NCBI GenBank assembly: GCA_026387835.1
Contig: JAPLKZ010000004.1
Coordinates: 41,928 to 73,927 of the forward strand
Direction: 5' to 3'
Source of the DNA: Candidatus Saganbacteria bacterium
GTDB lineage: Bacteria > Margulisbacteria > WOR-1 > JAKLHX01
Length of the DNA stretch: 32,000 nucleotides
Under the pieces are notes generated by a model. That model was given only the letters and a program-made list of their open reading frames with translations, ran no database searches and had not been told where the DNA came from. This document shows positions 2,882-22,230 of the stretch, piece after piece. The position numbers and the translations under genes are program-made. The stretch's first letter is position 1. Every line of letters starts with the position of its first letter.

Positions 2882-3481
2882 ATGTGGGCAAAACTAAGCA
2901 GCTTGTTCTTCAGAGGGGTAATAATATTACTCCCGTTATTCATCACGATATGGCTTTTGTGGTTCATGTTCTCGTTCATGGACGGCATCCTGGGTGGCAT
3001 TCTTTCCTTGATATTCGGACATCCGATGCCGGGACTCGGTTTTATTATAACGATCTCCCTGATACTGTTCACCGGGTATCTTGCAAATTACCTTATCGGC
3101 GAAAGATTCTTTCACTTTATCGATAATCTGCTCATAAAAGTGCCGATAGTAAAGACGATCTACTCTTCTGCCAAGCAGGTCAATGACGCGCTTTTCCAGA
3201 CAGGGGCTTCAAAGGGATTTACAAAAGCATGCCTCATTGAATATCCGAGGACCGGCGTCTATTCAATAGGTTTTCTGACAAGCAGGACATCAAAGGAAAT
3301 ATCCAAAAAGACAGGCCACGATGACCTTGTCAACGTTTTTATCCCGAACACCCCTACCCCTGCAACGGGATTCCTGGTCCTTGTACCGCAGAAGGACGTC
3401 ATCATGCTTGATATCAAGACCGAGGATGCGGTAAAGATGATCGTATCCGCGGGCGTGCTCCAGCCAAAAGAAAGAAAATAA
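2882..3481 (+). CDS. DUF502 (COG2928) family membrane protein
   Basis: 199 aa with two N-terminal hydrophobic helices, then a conserved soluble part with ...PNTPTPATGFLVLVP..., typical of DUF502. I prefer this frame over the overlapping 2851-3126 ORF. Confidence 0.8.
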   Translation: MWAKLSSLFFRGVIILLPLFITIWLLWFMFSFMDGILGGILSLIFGHPMPGLGFIITISLILFTGYLANYLIGERFFHFIDNLLIKVPIVKTIYSSAKQVNDALFQTGASKGFTKACLIEYPRTGVYSIGFLTSRTSKEISKKTGHDDLVNVFIPNTPTPATGFLVLVPQKDVIMLDIKTEDAVKMIVSAGVLQPKERK

Positions 3482-3482
3482 A

Positions 3483-4673
3483 ATGGAATTTTCTCATCTT
3501 CTTCTGACACTGATCGTCATCCTTATCACAGCAAAGCTTTTCGGCGAGCTCGCACAGAGGCTGGGACAAAGCCCTGTGATCGGCGAGCTTATCGGCGGCG
3601 TGATAATAGGCGGAAGCGTGCTGGGGCTTGTGCATGATTCTCAGATGATCCAGGTCTTTGCAGAGATCGGCGCGATACTGCTCTTGTTCGAGATCGGCAT
3701 CCAGACTAACCTTTATGACTTTTTAAAGGTAGGCGGCTGGGCTTTTGTCGTTGCCTGCGTGGGTGTCTTTTTTCCCTTTCTCTTCGGTTATTATATAAGT
3801 ACGTTCTTCGGCCTTGACATGGTCCATTCGATATTCATTGGAGCCATCCTCACAGCTACATCAGTAGGTATTACAGCCAGGGTCTTTTCAGACCTCCATG
3901 CGCTTGCGTCCAAAGAAGCAAGGATCGTCCTCGGCGCCGCTGTGATCGACGATGTTATCGGCCTTGCGATACTCGCTGTCGTCACGAGACTGGTCCTGAA
4001 CGGGAATGTTTCTTTTTCGTCGGTAGCAAATATTACTATGATCGCGGTGGTATTCCTCTCTGTCTCGCTCATAGCCGGCGTCCTGATCATGCCGTTACTT
4101 TTCGGACTTTTAAGAAAGATGCGTGTAAGGGGAATATTATTTGTTAGCGCGTTCTGTTTCTGCCTTTTGCTTGCGTATGTCGCCTCCGCCGACATGCACC
4201 TTCCTTATATAGGCTATTTCAAGGTCGGGCTGGCGCCTATTGTCGGCGCTTTCATCGCGGGCCTGATACTTTCGATCACAAGAGAAAGGGTCTTCATCGA
4301 GGAACAGATAAAACCTCTTGCGGATATTTTCGTGCCGGTGTTTTTCGTCCTTATGGGAGCTCTTGTTGATATAAAAGTCTTCAATCCGTATGTCCCCTCC
4401 AATGCGATGATACTCCAGATAGCCCTGTGGCTGTTCATTGCCGCTGTGATCGGAAAGGTGATTGCAGGATTTTCCGTGCTTGACCGTACATCCAACAAGC
4501 TTCTCATCGGGGTCGGGATGATCCCGAGAGGCGAAGTCGGCCTTATCTTTGCGAGCATGGGGCTTACAAAGCATATAATCACCCAGCCCATCTATTCCGC
4601 CGCGGTCGTAGTGATAATGGCGACGACCTTCGTGACGCCGTTCCTTTTAAAGCTGCTGTTAAAAAAGAAATGA
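3483..4673 (+). CDS. cation:proton antiporter (Na+/H+ exchanger family, CPA2/Kef-like membrane domain, no RCK domain)
   Basis: 396 aa and polytopic. The N-terminus ...ITAKLFGELAQRLGQSPVIGELIGGVIIG... and ...MIPRGEVGLIFA... are typical of the family. It starts 1 nt after the DUF502 stop. Confidence 0.85.
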   Translation: MEFSHLLLTLIVILITAKLFGELAQRLGQSPVIGELIGGVIIGGSVLGLVHDSQMIQVFAEIGAILLLFEIGIQTNLYDFLKVGGWAFVVACVGVFFPFLFGYYISTFFGLDMVHSIFIGAILTATSVGITARVFSDLHALASKEARIVLGAAVIDDVIGLAILAVVTRLVLNGNVSFSSVANITMIAVVFLSVSLIAGVLIMPLLFGLLRKMRVRGILFVSAFCFCLLLAYVASADMHLPYIGYFKVGLAPIVGAFIAGLILSITRERVFIEEQIKPLADIFVPVFFVLMGALVDIKVFNPYVPSNAMILQIALWLFIAAVIGKVIAGFSVLDRTSNKLLIGVGMIPRGEVGLIFASMGLTKHIITQPIYSAAVVVIMATTFVTPFLLKLLLKKK

Positions 4674-13481: not shown

Positions 13482-13516
13482 TTGACACCGTGAAAATATG
13501 CTCTATAATTATAACA
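13482..13516. promoter_or_regulatory. back-to-back promoters with overlapping -10 hexamers
   Basis: Plus strand: TTGACA (13482-13487), 16 nt, TATAAT (13504-13509). Minus strand: TGtTATAAT (complement of 13508-13516), facing accC. The two -10 boxes overlap in the palindrome TATAATTATA. Confidence 0.5.
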
Positions 13517-13571: not shown

Positions 13572-13730
13572 ATGGCAAGAGGCGGATTATCAAAAATGAG
13601 AGTGGATTTCAAAGGACAGACGGATACATTGGAAGATGTCTTCGGAAAAAAGGCGATCCCGGTCACGTCAATGACAAAGATCATCTGGGGTGTGATCAAG
13701 AGAAAAAAATTGATGAAAAAGGTCAGCTGA
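13572..13730 (+). CDS. 52-aa basic protein with a SWIB/MDM2-like motif (tentative)
   Basis: Too short for the ORF track. ATG at 13572 follows AGGAGGTGA (13557-13565). A consensus promoter lies upstream and a hairpin terminator lies downstream. The sequence is MARGGLSKMRVDFKGQTDTLEDVFGKKAIPVTSMTKIIWGVIKRKKLMKKVS. The pattern L..VFGKK.IP.T.MTK.IW..IK resembles one half of a SWIB domain. Confidence 0.6.
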   Translation: MARGGLSKMRVDFKGQTDTLEDVFGKKAIPVTSMTKIIWGVIKRKKLMKKVS

Positions 13731-13753
13731 TCATTTCTTAGTCTGAATTGTAT

Positions 13754-13787
13754 AAAAGCCCCTGTACTAGGCAGGGGTTTTTATTTT
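13754..13787. terminator. bidirectional rho-independent terminator
   Basis: Stem CCCCTG (13759-13764) pairs with CAGGGG (13772-13777) around a 7-nt loop. It is flanked by AAAA on the left and TTTTTATTTT on the right. It sits between the convergent 52-aa ORF and the NRAMP gene. Confidence 0.6.
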
Positions 13788-13805: not shown

Positions 13806-15071
13806 TTAGAATACGTTCAGGTACAGCATCAATGAAGCGATGACGGTGAAACTCGCGATCGTTATCCATGCCAGGATATTCGAGAACCTGTTGTTCACAT
13901 AGGGGCCCATCAGTTTTTTGTCATTAATAAGTTTCAGGATGACGAAGAAGATGAACGGCAGAAGCACGGTGTTGAGCGCCTGTGAAGCCGTGAGCACGAA
14001 TATCATCGGAAAGTTCGGCAGGAAAACGAGCAGCGTGCTCGCGAAAAGACAGAACCCTATTATTGTATAAAATAACGGGGCCTCTTTGAACGATGAGTTC
14101 ACCTTCCTCTCCGTACCCAGGATCTCGGTGATCGCATAAGCCGTCCCCATCGATATGACGCTGACGCCCAGCAGAGACGCGTTAAGAAGTCCCCACGCGA
14201 AAAGATGCTTTGAGAACGCCCCGAGCATGGGTTCGAGCGCCATCGCCGCGTCAGCCGCGTTCTCTATCCTGATACCTTTTGCAAAAAGAGTGGCTGCTGC
14301 CGAGATGATTATAAAATAAGCCACGAAATCGGTCCAGAATGCACCGAAAAGGACGTCCATCCTTGCGGTCTTAAGATGTTTCTTGTCCACTCCCTTGTCG
14401 ACAAAATACGACTGCACAAAAAACTGCCCCCACACTGTTAACGTCGTTCCTATCAGTGCCGTCGCCGTAAATATGAATTCCCGGTTAAATTTGATGACCG
14501 GGACCAGGCTTCCCTGCACCATCGCGGGGATATCCGGCCTTGCGATGAAACCGTTGACGATATAACAGAAAAAAAGTATGCAGGAGGTCATAAAAATATT
14601 CTGGACAAAGTTGAAGCTGCCTTTAAGGATGATATACCAGATGAAGAACACGAACACGGGCACAAATATCATCCTGGGAATATGGTAGATGTCGGCCACA
14701 GAAGCTATTCCCGCCACGTCCGCAAGGATGTTCGAAAAATTGGCTATAAAGACCAGGCACAGTATCAACACCGCAGTGTGGAGTCCGATACGCTCTCTTA
14801 TGAGGTCGCCCAGGCCCTTTCCCGTTACGACACCCAGCCTTGCACCCATCTCCTGTGTTATATAGAGCATGAAGGTTATGACTATCAATATCCAAAGCAT
14901 CGAGTAGCCGAAATGCGCTCCTGCCACTGAATATGTCGCCACGCCTCCCGCATCATTATCGGCTGTGCCGGTTATTATCCCCGGACCTATCACGGAGAAC
15001 ATTATCAGAAGCCTTAATCTCCAATAATTCCAGTTTTTATTCTTGTTCTTTTTTTTAAAAAGCATCAGCAT
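13806..15071 (-). CDS. NRAMP (SLC11) family divalent cation transporter with a non-canonical metal site
   Basis: 421 aa and polytopic. GPGIITGTADNDAGGVATYSVAGAHFGYSMLW aligns to the MntH TM1 region [32 protein letters not shown]. The TM6 region is IGTTLTVWGQFF versus LGATIMPHVIYL. Confidence 0.9.
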   Translation of the reverse strand: MLMLFKKKNKNKNWNYWRLRLLIMFSVIGPGIITGTADNDAGGVATYSVAGAHFGYSMLWILIVITFMLYITQEMGARLGVVTGKGLGDLIRERIGLHTAVLILCLVFIANFSNILADVAGIASVADIYHIPRMIFVPVFVFFIWYIILKGSFNFVQNIFMTSCILFFCYIVNGFIARPDIPAMVQGSLVPVIKFNREFIFTATALIGTTLTVWGQFFVQSYFVDKGVDKKHLKTARMDVLFGAFWTDFVAYFIIISAAATLFAKGIRIENAADAAMALEPMLGAFSKHLFAWGLLNASLLGVSVISMGTAYAITEILGTERKVNSSFKEAPLFYTIIGFCLFASTLLVFLPNFPMIFVLTASQALNTVLLPFIFFVILKLINDKKLMGPYVNNRFSNILAWITIASFTVIASLMLYLNVF

Positions 15072-15098
15072 ATTCCACGGAGGGTTTTCAGACGATAC

Positions 15099-16370
15099 TT
15101 ACCCTACCGACATCCTTTTCCTTCGCGCAAGCGGCGGCAGTATGAAATCGATGACATCATCCACCGTCACGATGCCGAGCAGCCTGTTAAGTTTGTCTAC
15201 GACCGGCACGGCAAGGAGATTGTATTTTGATATCACTTCGGCTACCATCTTCTGGCTCATCTCCGGATGCACGGTTATGATCTTGGTCTTCATGATCTCC
15301 GAGACCGGAGCATCGAGTTTTGATATTATCAGGCTCCTTAACGACAGGACCCCGACAAGATGCTGCGCTTCATCGACCACGTAGAGATAATAGACCGTCT
15401 CGCATGAAGGCGCGAGCTCCCGTATCTTTTCGATCGTCTGCTGGGCCGTAAGGTCTTTCGATATAGTTATGAACTCCGTCGTCATGAGCCCTCCGCCGGT
15501 CTCCTCTCCGTGCTTCAAAAGCTCCTGTATCTCTTCCGCTTTTTTCTGCTTCATGAGCCTCAAAAGCTCGGACGCTTTTTCTTCAGGCAGGTCTCCCAGC
15601 ACGTCGGCAGCCTCGTCGCTGGGCATCCTTTCGATTATGGAAAGCGCTTTTTTGGAGTCAAGGATCCCGATCAGGTAAGCCTGGATACGGGGTTCAAGCT
15701 CGTGAAGGGCTTCCGCGGCGGTCTCGGTCGACAATGACGAAAAAATAGCCGTTTTTTCGTCGATATGAACCTGGCTTATTATATTGGCAATATCCGCGGG
15801 GTGGAGCTTTGAGACCCCCTGGTACGGGACGACCAGCTTTAACCGCGCGATATCTGTCTGTAACGGCTCGACAAAATTCCAGCCTATCAGGTCATCCTTG
15901 AGCTGGATATTGAACACGGCCATCAGAGGAAGCAGTATTTTGTCGAGATGCAGTCTTCTAATAATGCCTTTGAACCCGACTTCAGCTGCGATCAGCCTGA
16001 TATCCATTCCTATTTTCGCGAGCTTCAAGTCGTTGACCCTGACGACCTTGGAGCCGTGGATATCCACTATCTGCTTGTCCATAAGGTCGCGCTGCAGAAG
16101 CATCTCGTTCTCTCTGATGGATGCAAAAGCAATATTGTCTTTTGAGGAATTCGCTGAAATAAGCCTTCTTCCGATATGGTTTATCTCTGACAATAATAAT
16201 ATCTTTTCTTTTTTGCCCCGCCCGAATTTTAATAAAAGTCCTATCACTTTAGGGAACTGGTCGCCCGGTTCGATGACGACGTCGATAACACTGCCGATCT
16301 TTTCTTCGGCCCTGTCGATCACTGTCTGACCGATCATCTCTGAAGCATACATTTCGGTAAAATAGATCAT
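15099..16370 (-). CDS. soluble PRC-barrel + MgtE N-terminal domain + CBS-pair protein (MgtE cytosolic module without a membrane domain)
   Basis: 423 aa. PRC-like N-terminal segments (MIGQTVIDRAEEKIGSVIDVVI...; LMDKQIVDIHGSKVVRVNDLKL...). MgtE_N-like helical region (...AAEALHELEP...IIERMPSDEAADVLGDLPEEKASELL..M). A CBS pair follows (GGLMTTEFITISKD...LYVVDEAQHLVGVLSLRSL...IMKTKIITVHPE...LLAVPVVDKLNRLLGIVTVDDVID). The protein ends right after the CBS pair with no hydrophobic segments. AGGAGG SD 6 nt upstream. Confidence 0.85.
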   Translation of the reverse strand: MIYFTEMYASEMIGQTVIDRAEEKIGSVIDVVIEPGDQFPKVIGLLLKFGRGKKEKILLLSEINHIGRRLISANSSKDNIAFASIRENEMLLQRDLMDKQIVDIHGSKVVRVNDLKLAKIGMDIRLIAAEVGFKGIIRRLHLDKILLPLMAVFNIQLKDDLIGWNFVEPLQTDIARLKLVVPYQGVSKLHPADIANIISQVHIDEKTAIFSSLSTETAAEALHELEPRIQAYLIGILDSKKALSIIERMPSDEAADVLGDLPEEKASELLRLMKQKKAEEIQELLKHGEETGGGLMTTEFITISKDLTAQQTIEKIRELAPSCETVYYLYVVDEAQHLVGVLSLRSLIISKLDAPVSEIMKTKIITVHPEMSQKMVAEVISKYNLLAVPVVDKLNRLLGIVTVDDVIDFILPPLARRKRMSVG

Positions 16371-16395
16371 GAGAAACCTCCTCTTGACTAAAAAA

Positions 16396-16424
16396 ATTAT
16401 ACCACAGGAGGCTTTTTATGTCCG
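16396..16424 (-). promoter_or_regulatory. candidate promoter (CGGACA-17-TGgTATAAT) inside the dprA 3' end and intergenic region
   Basis: The minus strand reads cggacataaaaagcctcctgtggtataat. The TATAAT is the complement of 16396-16401, preceded by TGg. It lies about 25 nt upstream of the ATG at 16370. Confidence 0.4.
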
Positions 16425-17498
16425 ATAAAAATATTTACCGGGCAGCTCTTTTGCAGCGCTCTTAAATATTAAATTCGACAGGATGAAAATGATCTCGGGG
16501 ATGGGTCTTGACGATCTTGACGCTATAGCATCGATATGTGCGGGTTCAAACGCGATGATCTCCATTATCAGCTTTTCGTCTTCCGAGAGCCGGTCCATGG
16601 CAACGACCGAGCTGTTATTAGCAGAGACCGGTATTATGTTGAGTTCTTCCAGTATGTCCCCCGCATTTTCCACAAGCTTTGCTCCCTGCTTGATAAGAGC
16701 GTTCGGCGCCCTGCTGAGGTCCCTGTCTATCTGTCCCGGAAGAGCAAATACATCCCTGTCCTGTTCAACGGCAAAACCCGCTGTTATGAGCGACCCGCTG
16801 TCGGATGATCCTTCTATCACGAGAGTTCCCATCGAAAGGCCTGAAATGATCCTGTTCCTTTTCGGGAAAGCCCACTTATCGATCTCCGCGACCTCATAAT
16901 ACTCGCAGACAAGAGCGCCGCTGCTTATTAATTTTTCTGCCAAACCCCTGTTTTGTGAAGGATATATCTTTTTTATCCCTGTGCCAAGGACAGCTATCGT
17001 CCTTCCTCCCGCTTCGACAGCAGCCTGATGCGCAAAGGAATCTATTCCTATTGCCAGGCCGGAGACGATGGTCACCCCCGCCTGCGCGAGGTCCTTTACC
17101 AGAGCCCTTGTCATGTCCCTTCCGTATGATGAGGGATTTCTTGTGCCTACCACGGCGATGCAGACCGAATCTTCAGGCAGTATTTCTCCTTTTATATACA
17201 AGACCGCGGGAGGGTCGTAAATATTGAGGAGTCTTTTTGGATACGAACTGTCCGAAATTGATATCGCTTTTATCCCGCCGTCAAACTCCGTCCTGATACT
17301 GCCCGGGTCTGCCTGCCGGCTTCTCTTGATATGCGAAGCAAGCTTTTCCCCGATCCCTTCGGCCACGGACAATTTTTCGCTTCCTGCTTTCCATATCTCT
17401 TCAGCTGAACCGAAATGTTCCAGCAGTTTTTTTATCCTCGCGGGACCGAGTTCCGGTATGCCGCTTAAAGCGATGAGGTATTGGGTCTCAGAAGGCAT
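16416..17498 (-). CDS. dprA: DNA processing protein DprA (Smf)
   Basis: 360 aa. N-terminal SAM-like LIALSGIPELGPARIKKLLEHFGS. Rossmann-like core ...VVGTRNPSSYG...IVSGLAIGIDSFAHQAA...VLG.G...YP..N. C-terminal winged-helix-like tail. Confidence 0.9.
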   Translation of the reverse strand: MPSETQYLIALSGIPELGPARIKKLLEHFGSAEEIWKAGSEKLSVAEGIGEKLASHIKRSRQADPGSIRTEFDGGIKAISISDSSYPKRLLNIYDPPAVLYIKGEILPEDSVCIAVVGTRNPSSYGRDMTRALVKDLAQAGVTIVSGLAIGIDSFAHQAAVEAGGRTIAVLGTGIKKIYPSQNRGLAEKLISSGALVCEYYEVAEIDKWAFPKRNRIISGLSMGTLVIEGSSDSGSLITAGFAVEQDRDVFALPGQIDRDLSRAPNALIKQGAKLVENAGDILEELNIIPVSANNSSVVAMDRLSEDEKLIMEIIAFEPAHIDAIASRSSRPIPEIIFILSNLIFKSAAKELPGKYFYRT

Positions 17499-18600
17499 GC
17501 TTTCTTAACTTTTCAAGATAAAGCGGTTTGAGGCTGACGCAGTCATAGGAGAACAATGAGACCCCGTAAAGAGACCCATAATACATCATATAGTGCCTTA
17601 CCATTTTGATCTGGCGGACGGTCATGTCCGCGTCCATTTTAAAAGCTGCGAGCCCCGCAACCACCGAATTTTTCTTTTTGGAAAGCGACGCGTCAAGAAG
17701 GACCATATCCTTTATTTTGTCCGGATCATCTGAATAGATCATCGGCACGACAAAATCCACTATGCCGTTATTGAGCCACGAAAGCCAGTCCTGGCCTTTA
17801 TCTTCCCTTGCTTCGACGATGTCCGGATATACGGCCGCGGACAAAGAAATATCCCTGCCCGACCGTTTTAACGCCTCCTTTAACCCGGCTACAAGTCCCG
17901 TCACGTTAGCGCACCTGTAATCAGTCCATTTATCCTTTATTTTCCTGTAACCGTCAGGCCCGTAATTATCTTTTAGACATTGCGGGTTTGTGACCAGATA
18001 TGAAGGGTCGACACCGAACGAATTGAAATATTGCCTCTTAGAATAATTATCAAAACCGGACTTTGAGTCAGGATATCTAATATAATCAAGATGCAACCCG
18101 TCGACATCATATTTTTCCGCGACTTCCAGGCAGACATCTTTCAGATGGTCCCTTACTTCTTTGTATGCCGGGTTCAGGAAAAGCATAGGCCTTGTCTCGA
18201 GTATCCATTCGGGGTGCAGTACGACGATATGGTCCTGCTGTTCCGGAGCCTCGGAAGTTGACCATACAAGGAATGTGTTTATCCATGCATGGACACTTAT
18301 CCCCCGGCTGTGGGATTTTTCGACAGTATATGCCAGGGGGTCAAATCCGGTATCGACGGATGGAAGTATGTCCGACCTGTAAAAAGCAACGCCTCTGCCG
18401 CAGACCTGTACAAAGAGCGTGTTAAAGCCGTTCTCCGCCGCGGCTTTCACGAAATTATCGATCTTTTCTTTTGAATCCATCTTAAACCTTGTCACCCACA
18501 TTGCTTTCACATAAGCGTATGAGCAATCTGCCCGCCATGCGTAAAAGACCGACACAATGACAATGATTAGAAAGAGAAAAAAGAGCCTTTTGGGGTTCAT
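17488..18600 (-). CDS. glycoside hydrolase-like family 10 (DUF187/YngK-type) secreted or membrane-anchored protein
   Basis: I prefer the ATG at 18600 ([22 protein letters not shown]..., a signal/anchor). It forms an ATGA overlap with the folE stop. [22 protein letters not shown] and [10 protein letters not shown] are typical of GHL10. The track start at 18936 would add 112 Arg/His/Pro-rich residues read out of frame through folE. Confidence 0.8.
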
Positions 18601-19160
18601 TTGCTCTTTATGAGGGAAAGGGCTTCTGCCCTGGTTGCGGCATTCCTGCGGAATATGCCCCTGACAGCCGAGGTCGTCGTGATGGCCCCGGGCTTTTTGA
18701 CCCCGCGCATCGACATGCAAAGGTGTTCGGCTTCTATGATCACCAGTACACCGTGGGGGTTCATTTTCTTCATCAGCAGGTCTGCGATCTGGGATGTCAG
18801 CCTTTCCTGCACCTGTGGCCTCTTTGCAAAAGCCTCCACTACCCGCACGAGCTTTGAAAGGCCGGTTATGTGGCCCTTTCGCGGGATATAGACTATATGC
18901 GCCATGCCGATGAAAGGGATAAGATGATGCTCGCACATCGAGTAAAAAGGTATGTCGCGGACCATCACCATCTCTTCGTGGTCTTCATTATGGAACATGG
19001 TCAGCTCTTTGGCAGGATCTTTTGAAAGCCCGGCAAAGAGTTCCGCGTACATCCTTGCGACCCTTGCGGGCGTGCCCTTGATGCCCTCGCGGTCGACATC
19101 CTCGCCTATGGCCTCAAGTATTTCTTTTACTGCTTTTTCTATCTTTTTAAGGTTGATCAT
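18597..19160 (-). CDS. folE: GTP cyclohydrolase I
   Basis: 187 aa. ...[12 protein letters not shown]... and ...RPQVQERLT... are typical of FolE type 1. Confidence 0.95.
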
Positions 19161-20821: not shown

Positions 20822-20901
20822 AATACAGGCATTTTATCATAAATCAGTGAAATTTTTGGTTTTTCAAGACGATATAAAAGTAGTATATAGAAATAATAAA
20901 C

Positions 20902-22230
20902 ATGGCATTAATAATAAGAAAAGGACTTCCGCAATTATCTGCGGTCCCACATGCCGTATTCAGCGGTAACCTATATGGTTCCGACCCGAAGTATTCCAGG
21001 CGTATCTTCCCGAAAACTCCGGAACAAAGATTAACTACATTAGATGACGTATTCTCGGTATCGACAGTTTTCGGCCTGAAAGTCATAATCGTGCCAGACC
21101 AGAAAACTGCCGCGTATTTAGGCGCGGGAATAACTCTGAAAGCTTTTGAAGCTTTGGGAAATGAAAAGGCAACACTCGGCGTGTCAGCCGGAGGGACATG
21201 GGAAGAAACTAGATACGCGCTCGGGATGCCTGAATTTTCAAAAAACATATTCGGAATGAGCCTGCCCGTTAACAGGATCCCGTTCGTGGGTTCGATCGAT
21301 GAATATGCCCTGCACAGGTCGCTGTACGACAAGATCACGGATGATATAGGTTCCGAATCCGATTTTATCGCCAACCGCCAGTCGCCCTGGACTTTTATGG
21401 GTGAACATCTTCTCTGGATGAACGCCGCCGGTTTTAATGAAGAGCAGTACATTGGCCCGCCTGTCAGATATGAATATGCGGATATTGAAGCATTAAGGAT
21501 ATTTGAAGATGTTCTAAAAAAGTATTTTGGCTGTTCTCTCGTCCAGTGGCACGGCATAGGGATAAACGGGCATGACGGTCAGTGCGAGCCCGGGGATTAT
21601 GATCCTGTAAAAGAAGGTTTCAGGCTTTCAAGGTTGACCGATGCCACACGGATACAAAATACGGGAGGTTTTGTCCCTTCTTTTAAAACAACAGGATATT
21701 TAAGGGGCACGATGTTCAGGGATGTAGCCGCTGCATACGGGCTTCTGACATTCAATGAAATCATCAGTAAATGTCAGGTGCTTGCCGCGTCTTTTCACGG
21801 CGATAATGTACCTGATGAATTATCGTATGTTGAGCTTGAAGTGTACCGGGATTTTATGAGATCATTTGCTTCTTCCTGGGACAGCGTCCTTAAAACCGCA
21901 AAAAGGGTCCCCGCTTTCGGGCTTACCCGCGGTACCGGAGAGATGGCGCACGCATCAGACCTTCATCTTTTCATGGCCACCGGCGGGCACAAAGCTCTTG
22001 CGATGAAAAATGTCCTTGAGAAGCCGGTCAGTCCAAGATGGCCGTCATCCAGCCTTCAGACATACCCCAGGTCTGTAGTGATAATCGACAGCCTGGCAGC
22101 TCGCTTGTTGAACCGTAACGATATGTATTTTGTATTTGAAGCTGATGAAAGCACCGCTGAAAAGATCAGCCAATTCGATCTCGCATCTTTAAAGGCAAAG
22201 TTCTGGGATAGGCTTGACCGGAAGGGATAA
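20902..22230 (+). CDS. divergent NagB/6-phosphogluconolactonase-superfamily (glucosamine-6-P deaminase-like) protein with an N-terminal extension and a large insertion
   Basis: 442 aa. It aligns by eye to E. coli NagB at several points. LGVSAGGT matches LGLPTGGT. VGSIDEYAL matches FNMDEYVGL. HGIGINGHDGQCEPG matches GGVGNDGHIAFNEPA. VPAFGLTRGTGEMAHASDLHLFMATGGHKALAMKNVLE matches [37 protein letters not shown]. The antisense ORF 20844-21557 is rejected. Confidence 0.7.
   Translation: MALIIRKGLPQLSAVPHAVFSGNLYGSDPKYSRRIFPKTPEQRLTTLDDVFSVSTVFGLKVIIVPDQKTAAYLGAGITLKAFEALGNEKATLGVSAGGTWEETRYALGMPEFSKNIFGMSLPVNRIPFVGSIDEYALHRSLYDKITDDIGSESDFIANRQSPWTFMGEHLLWMNAAGFNEEQYIGPPVRYEYADIEALRIFEDVLKKYFGCSLVQWHGIGINGHDGQCEPGDYDPVKEGFRLSRLTDATRIQNTGGFVPSFKTTGYLRGTMFRDVAAAYGLLTFNEIISKCQVLAASFHGDNVPDELSYVELEVYRDFMRSFASSWDSVLKTAKRVPAFGLTRGTGEMAHASDLHLFMATGGHKALAMKNVLEKPVSPRWPSSSLQTYPRSVVIIDSLAARLLNRNDMYFVFEADESTAEKISQFDLASLKAKFWDRLDRKG

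Follow-up and report, generated by a model that had tools for sequence, protein, structure and literature searches.

A Margulisbacterial NRMT-type transporter gene and its soluble MgtE-like partner: a candidate feedback module for Mg2+ uptake

Why would a bacterium encode the cytosolic Mg2+-sensing part of an MgtE channel as a separate soluble protein, directly upstream of a transporter with an unrelated fold? The question is raised by a 32,000-nucleotide stretch of DNA from Candidatus Saganbacteria bacterium (GenBank assembly GCA_026387835.1, contig JAPLKZ010000004.1, positions 41,928 to 73,927), here called the window, the minus strand of which carries a two-gene unit: gene 1, which encodes an MgtE-like soluble protein (the partner), followed by gene 2, which encodes a transporter of the NRAMP family. 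Both open reading frames were confirmed at the coordinates given in Table 1. An earlier note on this DNA took the pairing to be uncharacterised as far as was known, which proved wrong, since it had been reported by Shin et al. in 2014, together with the feedback idea and a co-expression test (PLoS Genet 10:e1004429, PMC4072509).

According to that work, most NrmT genes ("most group members") adjoin a gene for a homologue of the MgtE cytoplasmic domain; these arrangements were termed "mgtE-nramp operons" (their Figure S5), both genes were often found to be co-regulated by M-box riboswitches, and the partner was suggested either to regulate transport by feedback from the cytoplasm or to act as a metal chaperone (PMC4072509). 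The pairing and the regulatory hypothesis were thus already published in 2014, and the locus adds a new Margulisbacterial case to the known family of operons that join NrmT with an MgtE-like fragment. The order of genes is the same as in the NrmT operons represented by Ca_c0685 of Clostridium acetobutylicum and by Acp2976/Acp2977 of Acidobacterium capsulatum, with the soluble homologue of the MgtE N and CBS domains immediately upstream of, and co-oriented with, the NRAMP-related transporter, and the reading developed below shares the cytoplasmic feedback hypothesis of Shin et al. The window differs from those operons in its source, Margulisiibacteriota/Saganbacteria, and in having Thr instead of Ala at the Met position of the transporter, which is within the consensus. 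The M-box, considered by Shin et al. to be the best marker of Mg2+ specificity, and an identifying rather than a defining feature of the Mg2+-specific subset, is missing from the window locus, as it is from the pair of Acidobacterium capsulatum (PMC4072509). No later paper on the partner was found in the open-access and bioRxiv literature, where a subscription-only paper could be missed, and the partner is not mentioned in the study of the Eggerthella lenta transporter EleNRMT, in a 2023 review of transporter regulation or in a 2026 review of Mg2+ transporters.

We consider it very probable that gene 2 encodes an NRMT and gene 1 its cognate partner. The reading as a whole, in which the locus is an mgtE-nramp operon of the known type and the cytosolic partner confers Mg2+ feedback inhibition on the NRMT, appears to us reasonably probable.

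The partner protein and the transporter

Pfam searches of the gene 1 product identified a PRC domain (residues 5-55, 37.3 bits), an MgtE_N domain (residues 189-289, 95.2 bits) and a CBS pair that extends to about residue 410 (76 bits), and no match to PF01769, the membrane domain of MgtE. The mgtE model TIGR00400 is matched over profile positions 27-251 of 450 only, with a score of 193.8 bits that is below the cut-off of 232.75. Because the five-helix C-terminal pore domain is missing, the gene 1 product is not an MgtE channel. The protein stops 13 residues past the CBS pair, and hydrophobicity analysis predicted no transmembrane segment in it; a single borderline hydrophobic window, residues 397-415, is the last strand and helix of the CBS pair and is homologous to the MgtE segment "LVGIVTVDDVLDVL". 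The closest solved structures are the cytosolic domains of MgtE (2yvy, E = 1.8e-38), and the same MgtE structures are the top Foldseek matches of the AlphaFold2 model (predicted local distance difference test score, pLDDT, 78.9), in which two N-terminal beta-barrels (residues ~1-80 and 97-170) and a disordered linker (172-184) precede the helical N domain and the CBS pair.

The first barrel, barrel a, scores 36-37 bits with the Pfam PRC family (PF05239) against a cut-off of 21.2 (E = 2.8e-09 to 5.8e-09), and is the least conserved region of the partner across phyla, with a mean identity of 22%. The second, barrel b, matches the same family weakly (13 bits, E = 0.1), and AlphaFold2 predicts a beta-barrel there at pLDDT 82-88. 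Its residues L97, D98, Q100, D103, R111, V112, N113, D114, G135, R138, R139 and W164 are kept in at least 85% of 59 partner sequences from different phyla; conservation at the level of the MgtE part implies that this motif would mark a functional surface. In the basic C-terminal tail, P412, P413 and R416 are invariant within Margulisiibacteriota, where the tail follows the pattern LPPxxRRKR; roughly half of the other phyla have a basic tail and the remainder none. Across phyla, the partner is nearly always a four-domain protein of about 420 residues with two N-terminal beta-barrels. These barrels, including the conserved second one, are not described in the 2014 paper, which mentions no barrel or PRC domain (PMC4072509).

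With the cytosolic domain of TtMgtE (2YVY, 2ZY9, 5X9G) the partner shares the N domain and the CBS pair at ~34% identity over ~230 residues. It differs in lacking the plug helix and the transmembrane domain, in carrying the basic tail at the place of the Mg2 and Mg3 sites, in the loss of the adenine contacts for ATP, in the two added N-terminal barrels, and in being a separate polypeptide encoded beside an unrelated transporter fold. The 59 partner sequences were aligned with TtMgtE, and the Mg2+ sites were mapped according to the definitions of Maruyama et al. (PMC5882242). The acidic ligands of Mg4, Mg6 and Mg7, and half of Mg5, are kept in the partner. The Mg6 ligand D95 corresponds to D256 (conserved in 57/59 sequences), the Mg4 ligands D91 and D247 to D252 and D405 (47/59 and 46/59, respectively), and the Mg7 ligand E59 to E220 (acidic in 45/59). 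For Mg5, D250 corresponds to D408 (acidic in 38/59) and D226 to N384 (Asn in 38/59), and the Mg2/Mg3 residues E258 and D259 of the plug helix, which is absent, fall on R416 and R417. The ligands of Mg2+ at the N/CBS interface of MgtE are thus conserved in the partner family, and binding of Mg2+ is predicted.

The gene 2 product matches the Pfam Nramp family PF01566 over profile positions 1-356 of 357 (E = 2e-83) and has 10 clear hydrophobic segments, possibly more. Its best solved relative is EleNRMT (7qia, 289 bits, E = 5.6e-85), followed at a distance by the other solved NRAMPs, of which the next scores 108 bits and MntH ~68 bits (E ~1e-18); BLASTP aligns it with EleNRMT over 398 residues without gaps, at 37% identity and 61% positives. 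The MntH model of NCBIfam gives 117 bits against a cut-off of 430. The canonical MntH motifs, DPGN in alpha-1 and A/CxxMPH in alpha-6, are replaced by DAGG and TTLTVW, in line with the published NRMT signature, in which DxxG-TxxA/T takes the place of DxxN-A/CxxM (PMC8806188). The residues tested functionally in EleNRMT, D55, G58, T224 and Q379, are all kept as D40, G43, T209 and Q364. T212 occupies the Met position, a substitution that is within the range of the family and no oddity because the consensus is TxxA/T, and W214 stands in place of the proton-pathway His of alpha-6b (the one His position checked), like W229 of EleNRMT. The two proteins share the SLC11 fold, the signature and this change from His to Trp, and differ in that Ala227 and Pro228 of EleNRMT (7QIA, 7QIC, 7QJI, 7QJJ; Ramanadane et al. 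2022, eLife 11:e74589) are T212 and V213 in the window protein, which is known from its sequence. EleNRMT transports Mg2+ and Mn2+ without coupling to H+, and does so as a purified protein in liposomes (PMC8806188); mutation of its T224 abolishes the transport of Mg2+ and retains that of Mn2+. By sequence comparison, gene 2 is assigned as a genuine member of the NRMT clade, not of MntH. The wider NRMT-like group falls into two subsets with the patterns "DAGG ... GTTx(A/T)xW", which include EleNRMT and the window protein, and "DP(S/A)G ... GTTI(S/T)PY".

What the earlier note had read from the DNA withstood these searches throughout. Pfam, TIGR00400 and the hydrophobicity analysis agree with its description of gene 1 as a PRC, MgtE_N and CBS-pair protein without a transmembrane domain, the NRAMP fold of gene 2, 27 nucleotides downstream, is borne out by Pfam, and the DAGG and GTTLTVW motifs are found where Table 1 lists them. 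The likeness that the note saw, in kind, between these changes and the NRMTs and the substitutions that it gave for that group (Asn to Gly, Ala to Thr, Met to Ala) agree with the published signature (PMC8806188), and the placement against MntH and NRMT that it called for came out on the NRMT side, as far as the scores can tell.

Conservation of the pairing

Species-representative genomes (GTDB, one per species) were scanned with an alignment of DAGG-type NRMTs, which yielded 80 loci from more than 15 phyla, and every open reading frame of these loci was searched with hidden Markov models built from the family of the window protein. Seven of the 80 loci were cut too short to be judged, which left 73 informative ones; the adjacency statistics cover the DAGG-type subset and not the "DP(S/A)G ... 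GTTI(S/T)PY" relatives. A full open reading frame with the PRC, N and CBS domains (403-560 residues, no transmembrane domain) lies immediately upstream of the transporter gene on the same strand in 56/73 loci, and a frameshifted one in one more (L047), so that the partner is immediately beside the NRMT in 57/73. It is adjacent downstream in 1/73 (L082) and 1-5 kb away in 7/73, mostly Acidobacteriaceae and including the Chloroflexota locus L051, which brings the loci with a partner within ~5 kb to 65/73; no partner was found within 6 kb in 8/73. The phyla covered include Margulisiibacteriota, Patescibacteria, Nitrospirota, Desulfobacterota, Acidobacteriota, Chloroflexota, Armatimonadota, Omnitrophota, Zixibacteria, Planctomycetota, Bacillota, Gammaproteobacteria, Actinomycetota and others. 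The neighbourhood check that the earlier note had asked for therefore found the adjacency conserved, and conservation of the pairing goes well beyond shared synteny, which supports a conserved functional pair.

Within Margulisbacteria, the whole neighbourhood is syntenic. The pairing is found also at L001, L083, L084 and L086, so that in the Margulisbacterial sample the Nramp gene lies beside the partner in five distinct loci, the window included, and is missing in one, L085. There, positions 3001-4640 contain an intact 423-residue partner with no adjacent Nramp gene, in a neighbourhood that is syntenic with the window (deacetylase, partner, small open reading frame, accC, nusB, rib genes), and the small open reading frame begins 7 nucleotides after the partner stop codon; the partner can thus persist without an adjacent transporter. 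Identity to partnered NRMTs is 57-91% for those without a partner within 6 kb, which resemble products of rearrangement or paralogues more than a class of their own. In five loci of Acidobacteriaceae and Rhodanobacteraceae (L013, L015, L018, L025, L059), the partner lies in the same orientation as the NRMT, 1-4.4 kb upstream of it and separated by other genes. In L051 (3210-7200, a Chloroflexota metagenome-assembled genome), the partner (PRC-N-CBS), a complete MgtE (MgtE_N, CBS, PF01769) and the NRMT form a three-gene Mg2+ cluster; a 926-residue open reading frame at this locus, taken as one protein, was rejected as a read-through artefact that merges the partner with mgtE, as judged from tblastn frames and Pfam.

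Scanning of 38 loci for M-boxes identified two, at L044 (4417-4587, Firmicutes metagenome-assembled genome) and L032 (4346-4523, Terriglobia metagenome-assembled genome), both full-length with 127-133 bits; none was found in the other 36. In three loci of Smithella/Syntrophales, matches to the PyrR-binding-site RNA were found that score 54-59 bits, just above the gathering score (L006 4445-4547, L011 4451-4555, L058 4413-4515, minus strand). Located immediately upstream of the partner gene and on the opposite strand, they presumably belong to a divergent pyr gene.

A candidate Mg2+ brake and its alternatives

Two considerations favour a trans-acting, Mg2+-dependent inhibitor as the function of the partner. 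First, EleNRMT is not proton-coupled, and an uncoupled uniporter needs a brake. Second, what the partner keeps of the MgtE sensor is the portion by which, upon Mg2+ binding, the N domain shuts onto the CBS pair, without the link to the pore. A connection with Mg2+ is also indicated by the M-boxes of L044 and L032, which lie directly upstream of the partner gene, the same arrangement as in Shin et al. (PMC4072509). In the proposed mechanism, the partner would bind the transporter from the cytoplasmic side, with the conserved barrel b as the probable contact and the basic C-terminal tail as a possible contributor, and would detect the free Mg2+ of the cytosol, as MgtE does, through acidic sites that lie between the N domain and the CBS pair. 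At sufficient Mg2+, it would close and inhibit uptake, and the uncoupled, membrane-potential-driven uniporter would thereby gain a negative feedback of the kind that is an integral part of MgtE and CorA. The tandem PRC barrels would replace the covalent link through the plug helix, and with no M-box in this lineage, the protein-level feedback would be the main Mg2+-specific control. We infer the feedback-inhibitor mechanism with confidence that is evenly balanced. The more specific picture, in which the PRC-PRC-MgtE_N-CBS protein is a detachable Mg2+-sensing gate that docks via barrel b onto the LeuT-fold NRMT uniporter and closes at sufficient Mg2+, is tentative, and we place it slightly below an even balance.

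There is a precedent for the concept. In the KtrA/TrkA RCK rings that act with KtrB/TrkH, soluble gating subunits are encoded beside their membrane partner, and both the interaction and the gating have been shown experimentally. The concept of a cytosolic ligand sensor that is co-transcribed with a permease is the same, whereas the folds and ligands are unrelated. PRC-barrels, for their part, are protein-interaction modules, one of which covers the photosynthetic reaction centre on its cytoplasmic side.

A number of observations weigh against the feedback reading. A physical interaction and a regulatory effect are hypothetical for every known member of the pairing, and the role of the PRC-barrels in docking would be by analogy. 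The adjacency is not obligatory, as the 8/73 NRMT loci without a partner within 6 kb and the lone partner of L085 demonstrate. No convincing discriminating positions emerged from the comparison of 56 partnered with 8 partner-less NRMTs, hence no interface signature, and no reliable natural fusion of the partner with an NRMT was found among 10 unusually long NRMT relatives that were scanned. As side results of the search for fusions, the sole protein with CBS and Nramp domains, P0151, was rejected as a faulty gene prediction that contains read-through of low complexity and is frameshifted at its end, and the Nramp relative P0240, whose binding site is not of the NRMT type, was found to carry an acidic N-terminal cytosolic extension of ~180 residues of unknown fold. 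The partner has also lost half of the Mg5 site (D226 to mostly Asn) and lacks the plug-helix sites Mg2 and Mg3, which in MgtE were needed for the conformational change of the whole molecule (PMC5882242). Finally, in the one published experiment, on the A. capsulatum pair, co-expression of Acp2976 with Acp2977 did not improve Mg2+ rescue, and Acp2977 acted mainly as a Mn2+ importer, which fully rescued a mutant in Mn2+ transport and supported growth in the Mg2+ assay at millimolar Mg2+ only (PMC4072509). The co-expression result does not contradict a brake and would be explained by one, because a brake would not improve rescue of growth at low Mg2+.

The alternative that survives best, and that we nevertheless regard as unlikely, takes up the last of these points: the transporter would be mainly a Mn2+ importer, the unit would not serve Mg2+ uptake, and the partner would link the uptake of Mn2+ to the Mg2+ status or would itself be a sensor of Mn2+. 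Acp2977, with an adjacent partner and no M-box, is a direct precedent for the situation found here, EleNRMT carries Mn2+ as well, and the window is devoid of the M-box, the marker of Mg2+ specificity proposed by Shin et al. (PMC4072509). Against this stands the full Mg2+-type signature of gene 2, including T209, the equivalent of the T224 that EleNRMT needs for the transport of Mg2+ and not of Mn2+. The partner, moreover, keeps acidic sites of the Mg2+ type, and the operons that follow the M-boxes of L044 and L032 are very similar to that of the window.

The negative co-expression result bears on another, rather improbable, explanation, under which the partner is a positive factor, either a chaperone that delivers or accepts the metal at the cytoplasmic exit or a factor for assembly or stability of the transporter; the chaperone was proposed explicitly by Shin et al. 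(PMC4072509). The acidic metal-binding residues are conserved, barrel b has an additional conserved acidic cluster (D98, D103, D114), and co-transcription is tight, with spacers of 1-7 nucleotides or overlaps in many lineages. Free cytosolic Mg2+, however, is millimolar, which leaves a chaperone without an obvious rationale. Furthermore, NRMTs work alone: Ca_c0685 and Ca_c3329 each rescued Mg2+-transport-deficient B. subtilis without a partner (PMC4072509) and purified EleNRMT is active in liposomes (PMC8806188), and the A. capsulatum rescue was no better with Acp2976 present.

It is also conceivable, and quite improbable, that the partner senses another ligand, alone or together with Mg2+, for instance an adenine nucleotide or the energy charge. 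CBS pairs commonly bind adenosine nucleotides. MgtE itself needs ATP to respond to physiological Mg2+, with F227A abolishing ATP binding (Tomita et al., PMC5529423), and the phosphate contacts of this site are kept in the partner, Y170 as Y328 (45/59) and R187 as R345 (41/59). The residues that recognise adenine are not conserved: F227 is replaced by L385, with Leu in 47/59 sequences, N203 corresponds to K361 at a variable position, and the ribose contact D188 is Ser in the window partner. Sensing of ATP by the partner therefore appears unlikely from the alignment, and the co-regulation by M-boxes points to Mg2+ as the signal. That the adjacency is functionally meaningless, with the partner serving something else, such as one of the MgtE proteins that consist of the transmembrane domain only (about 2,600 cases; preprint 10.1101/2025.05.26.656215), could be argued from the existence of such proteins, from the lone partner of L085 and from the complete mgtE between partner and NRMT in L051, but is effectively excluded by the cross-phylum statistics, as 57/73 immediate, co-oriented pairs in unrelated neighbourhoods of more than 15 phyla cannot be explained by chance or inherited synteny, the window has no MgtE membrane domain, and the mgtE of L051 has N and CBS domains of its own.

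The locus and the place of the partner in Mg2+ uptake

The gene 1 product is 100% identical to a protein from a metagenome-assembled genome of Candidatus Saganbacteria, and every close relative of it comes from Margulisiibacteriota/WOR-1. Both genes share one frame, and the spacer between them is longer than in relatives, where it measures 1-7 nucleotides or the genes overlap. A promoter-like site, co-oriented genes 27 nucleotides apart and a strong terminator give the unit the appearance of a single operon (Table 1). The promoter-like site is putative, being a consensus match from a consensus scan (10/12 positions plus TG), and the terminator hairpin has a fold energy of -17.3 kcal/mol (z = -2.78), which none of 200 shuffled sequences equalled. 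At 45 nucleotides, the leader is too short for an M-box, as the earlier note had remarked, and no Rfam family reached its gathering threshold anywhere in the window. Domain searches of the window proteins found no MgtE membrane domain. The flanking genes have housekeeping functions (dprA, accC, nusB, riboflavin genes, folE, fhs, dxs, mreB).

Table 1. Features of the two-gene unit, in positions of the window
Feature	Position	Strand	Description	Basis
Gene 1 (partner)	15099..16370	-	soluble 423-residue protein with PRC-barrel, MgtE_N and CBS pair; NrmT-associated "MgtE-like fragment"	Pfam, NCBIfam, PDB, AlphaFold2, Foldseek
Barrel a, residues 1-85	16116..16370	-	PRC-barrel domain	Pfam, AlphaFold2 beta strands
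Barrel b, residues 90-170	15861..16103	-	second, PRC-like beta-barrel with charged motif	AlphaFold2 strands 100-130, 161-169
MgtE N domain, residues 189-289	15504..15806	-	carries E220, D252, D256	Pfam
CBS pair, residues 295-410	15141..15488	-		Pfam, mapping onto TtMgtE
Basic C-terminal tail LPPLARRKRMSVG, residues 411-423	15102..15140	-	occupies the place of the MgtE plug helix; low model confidence	
Gene 2 (transporter)	13806..15071	-	421-residue NRMT-type SLC11/NRAMP transporter	Pfam, PDB match, BLASTP
Alpha-1 motif D40-A-G-G43	14943..14954	-	DxxG of NRMTs; D55 and G58 in EleNRMT	
Alpha-6 motif G208-T209-T-L-T212-V-W214	14430..14450	-	TxxA/T of NRMTs; T209 is T224 in EleNRMT	
Intergenic spacer	15072..15098	-	27 nucleotides, without obvious Shine-Dalgarno sequence	
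Leader	16371..16415	-	45 nucleotides from dprA stop codon to gene 1 start; GAGGAGG ribosome-binding site	
Promoter-like site	16396..16424	-	CGGACA, 17 nucleotides, TG-n-TATAAT, extended -10; overlaps the end of dprA	
Bidirectional intrinsic terminator hairpin	13752..13784	both	minus-strand stem 13777-13759, then CUUUUAU; closes the two-gene unit	terminator scan

Three further observations concern the surroundings of the unit. A 52-residue open reading frame (MARGGLSKMRVDFKGQTDTLEDVFGKKAIPVTSMTKIIWGVIKRKKLMKKVS) at 13572-13730 on the plus strand is convergent to the transporter gene and shares the bidirectional terminator 13752-13784 with it. It is preceded by a promoter at 13482-13509 (plus strand) with a perfect 12/12 match to the sigma-70 consensus and by an AAGGAGG ribosome-binding site, is kept at the same position in the Margulisbacterial loci L083, L085 and L086 with 50-64% identity and 22 invariant residues, shows a weak SWIB/MDM2-like match (E = 0.016) and probably encodes a genuine small protein. 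At 20844-22230, two open reading frames overlap on opposite strands, 20902-22230 (plus, 442 residues) and 20844-21557 (minus, 237 residues), and neither has a Pfam match. The local GC skew is positive there, unlike that of the surrounding minus-strand genes, which suggests that the plus-strand frame is the real gene. Lastly, an open reading frame similar to glycosyl hydrolases of the GHL10 family (17488-18936, minus strand) has a GTG start that overlaps folE (18597-19160) by ~340 nucleotides and a first stretch of ~100 residues rich in Arg, Pro and Gly; the real start of the protein is probably an internal Met before a segment that resembles a signal peptide.

The present analysis adds to the 2014 description counts of how widely the pairing is conserved, the arrangement of the partner in four domains, the MgtE ligand sites that survive in it and a reinterpretation of the negative co-expression test. 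The general idea of a gate acting in trans dates from 2014, and the docking element formed by the barrels has apparently not been described before. Among bacterial Mg2+ importers, NRMTs form the fourth class; they are apparently uncoupled uniporters, for which the partner is the obvious candidate for the control of overload. If the feedback reading is true, a transporter of unrelated fold would have come to use, in trans, the module with which the MgtE channel senses Mg2+.

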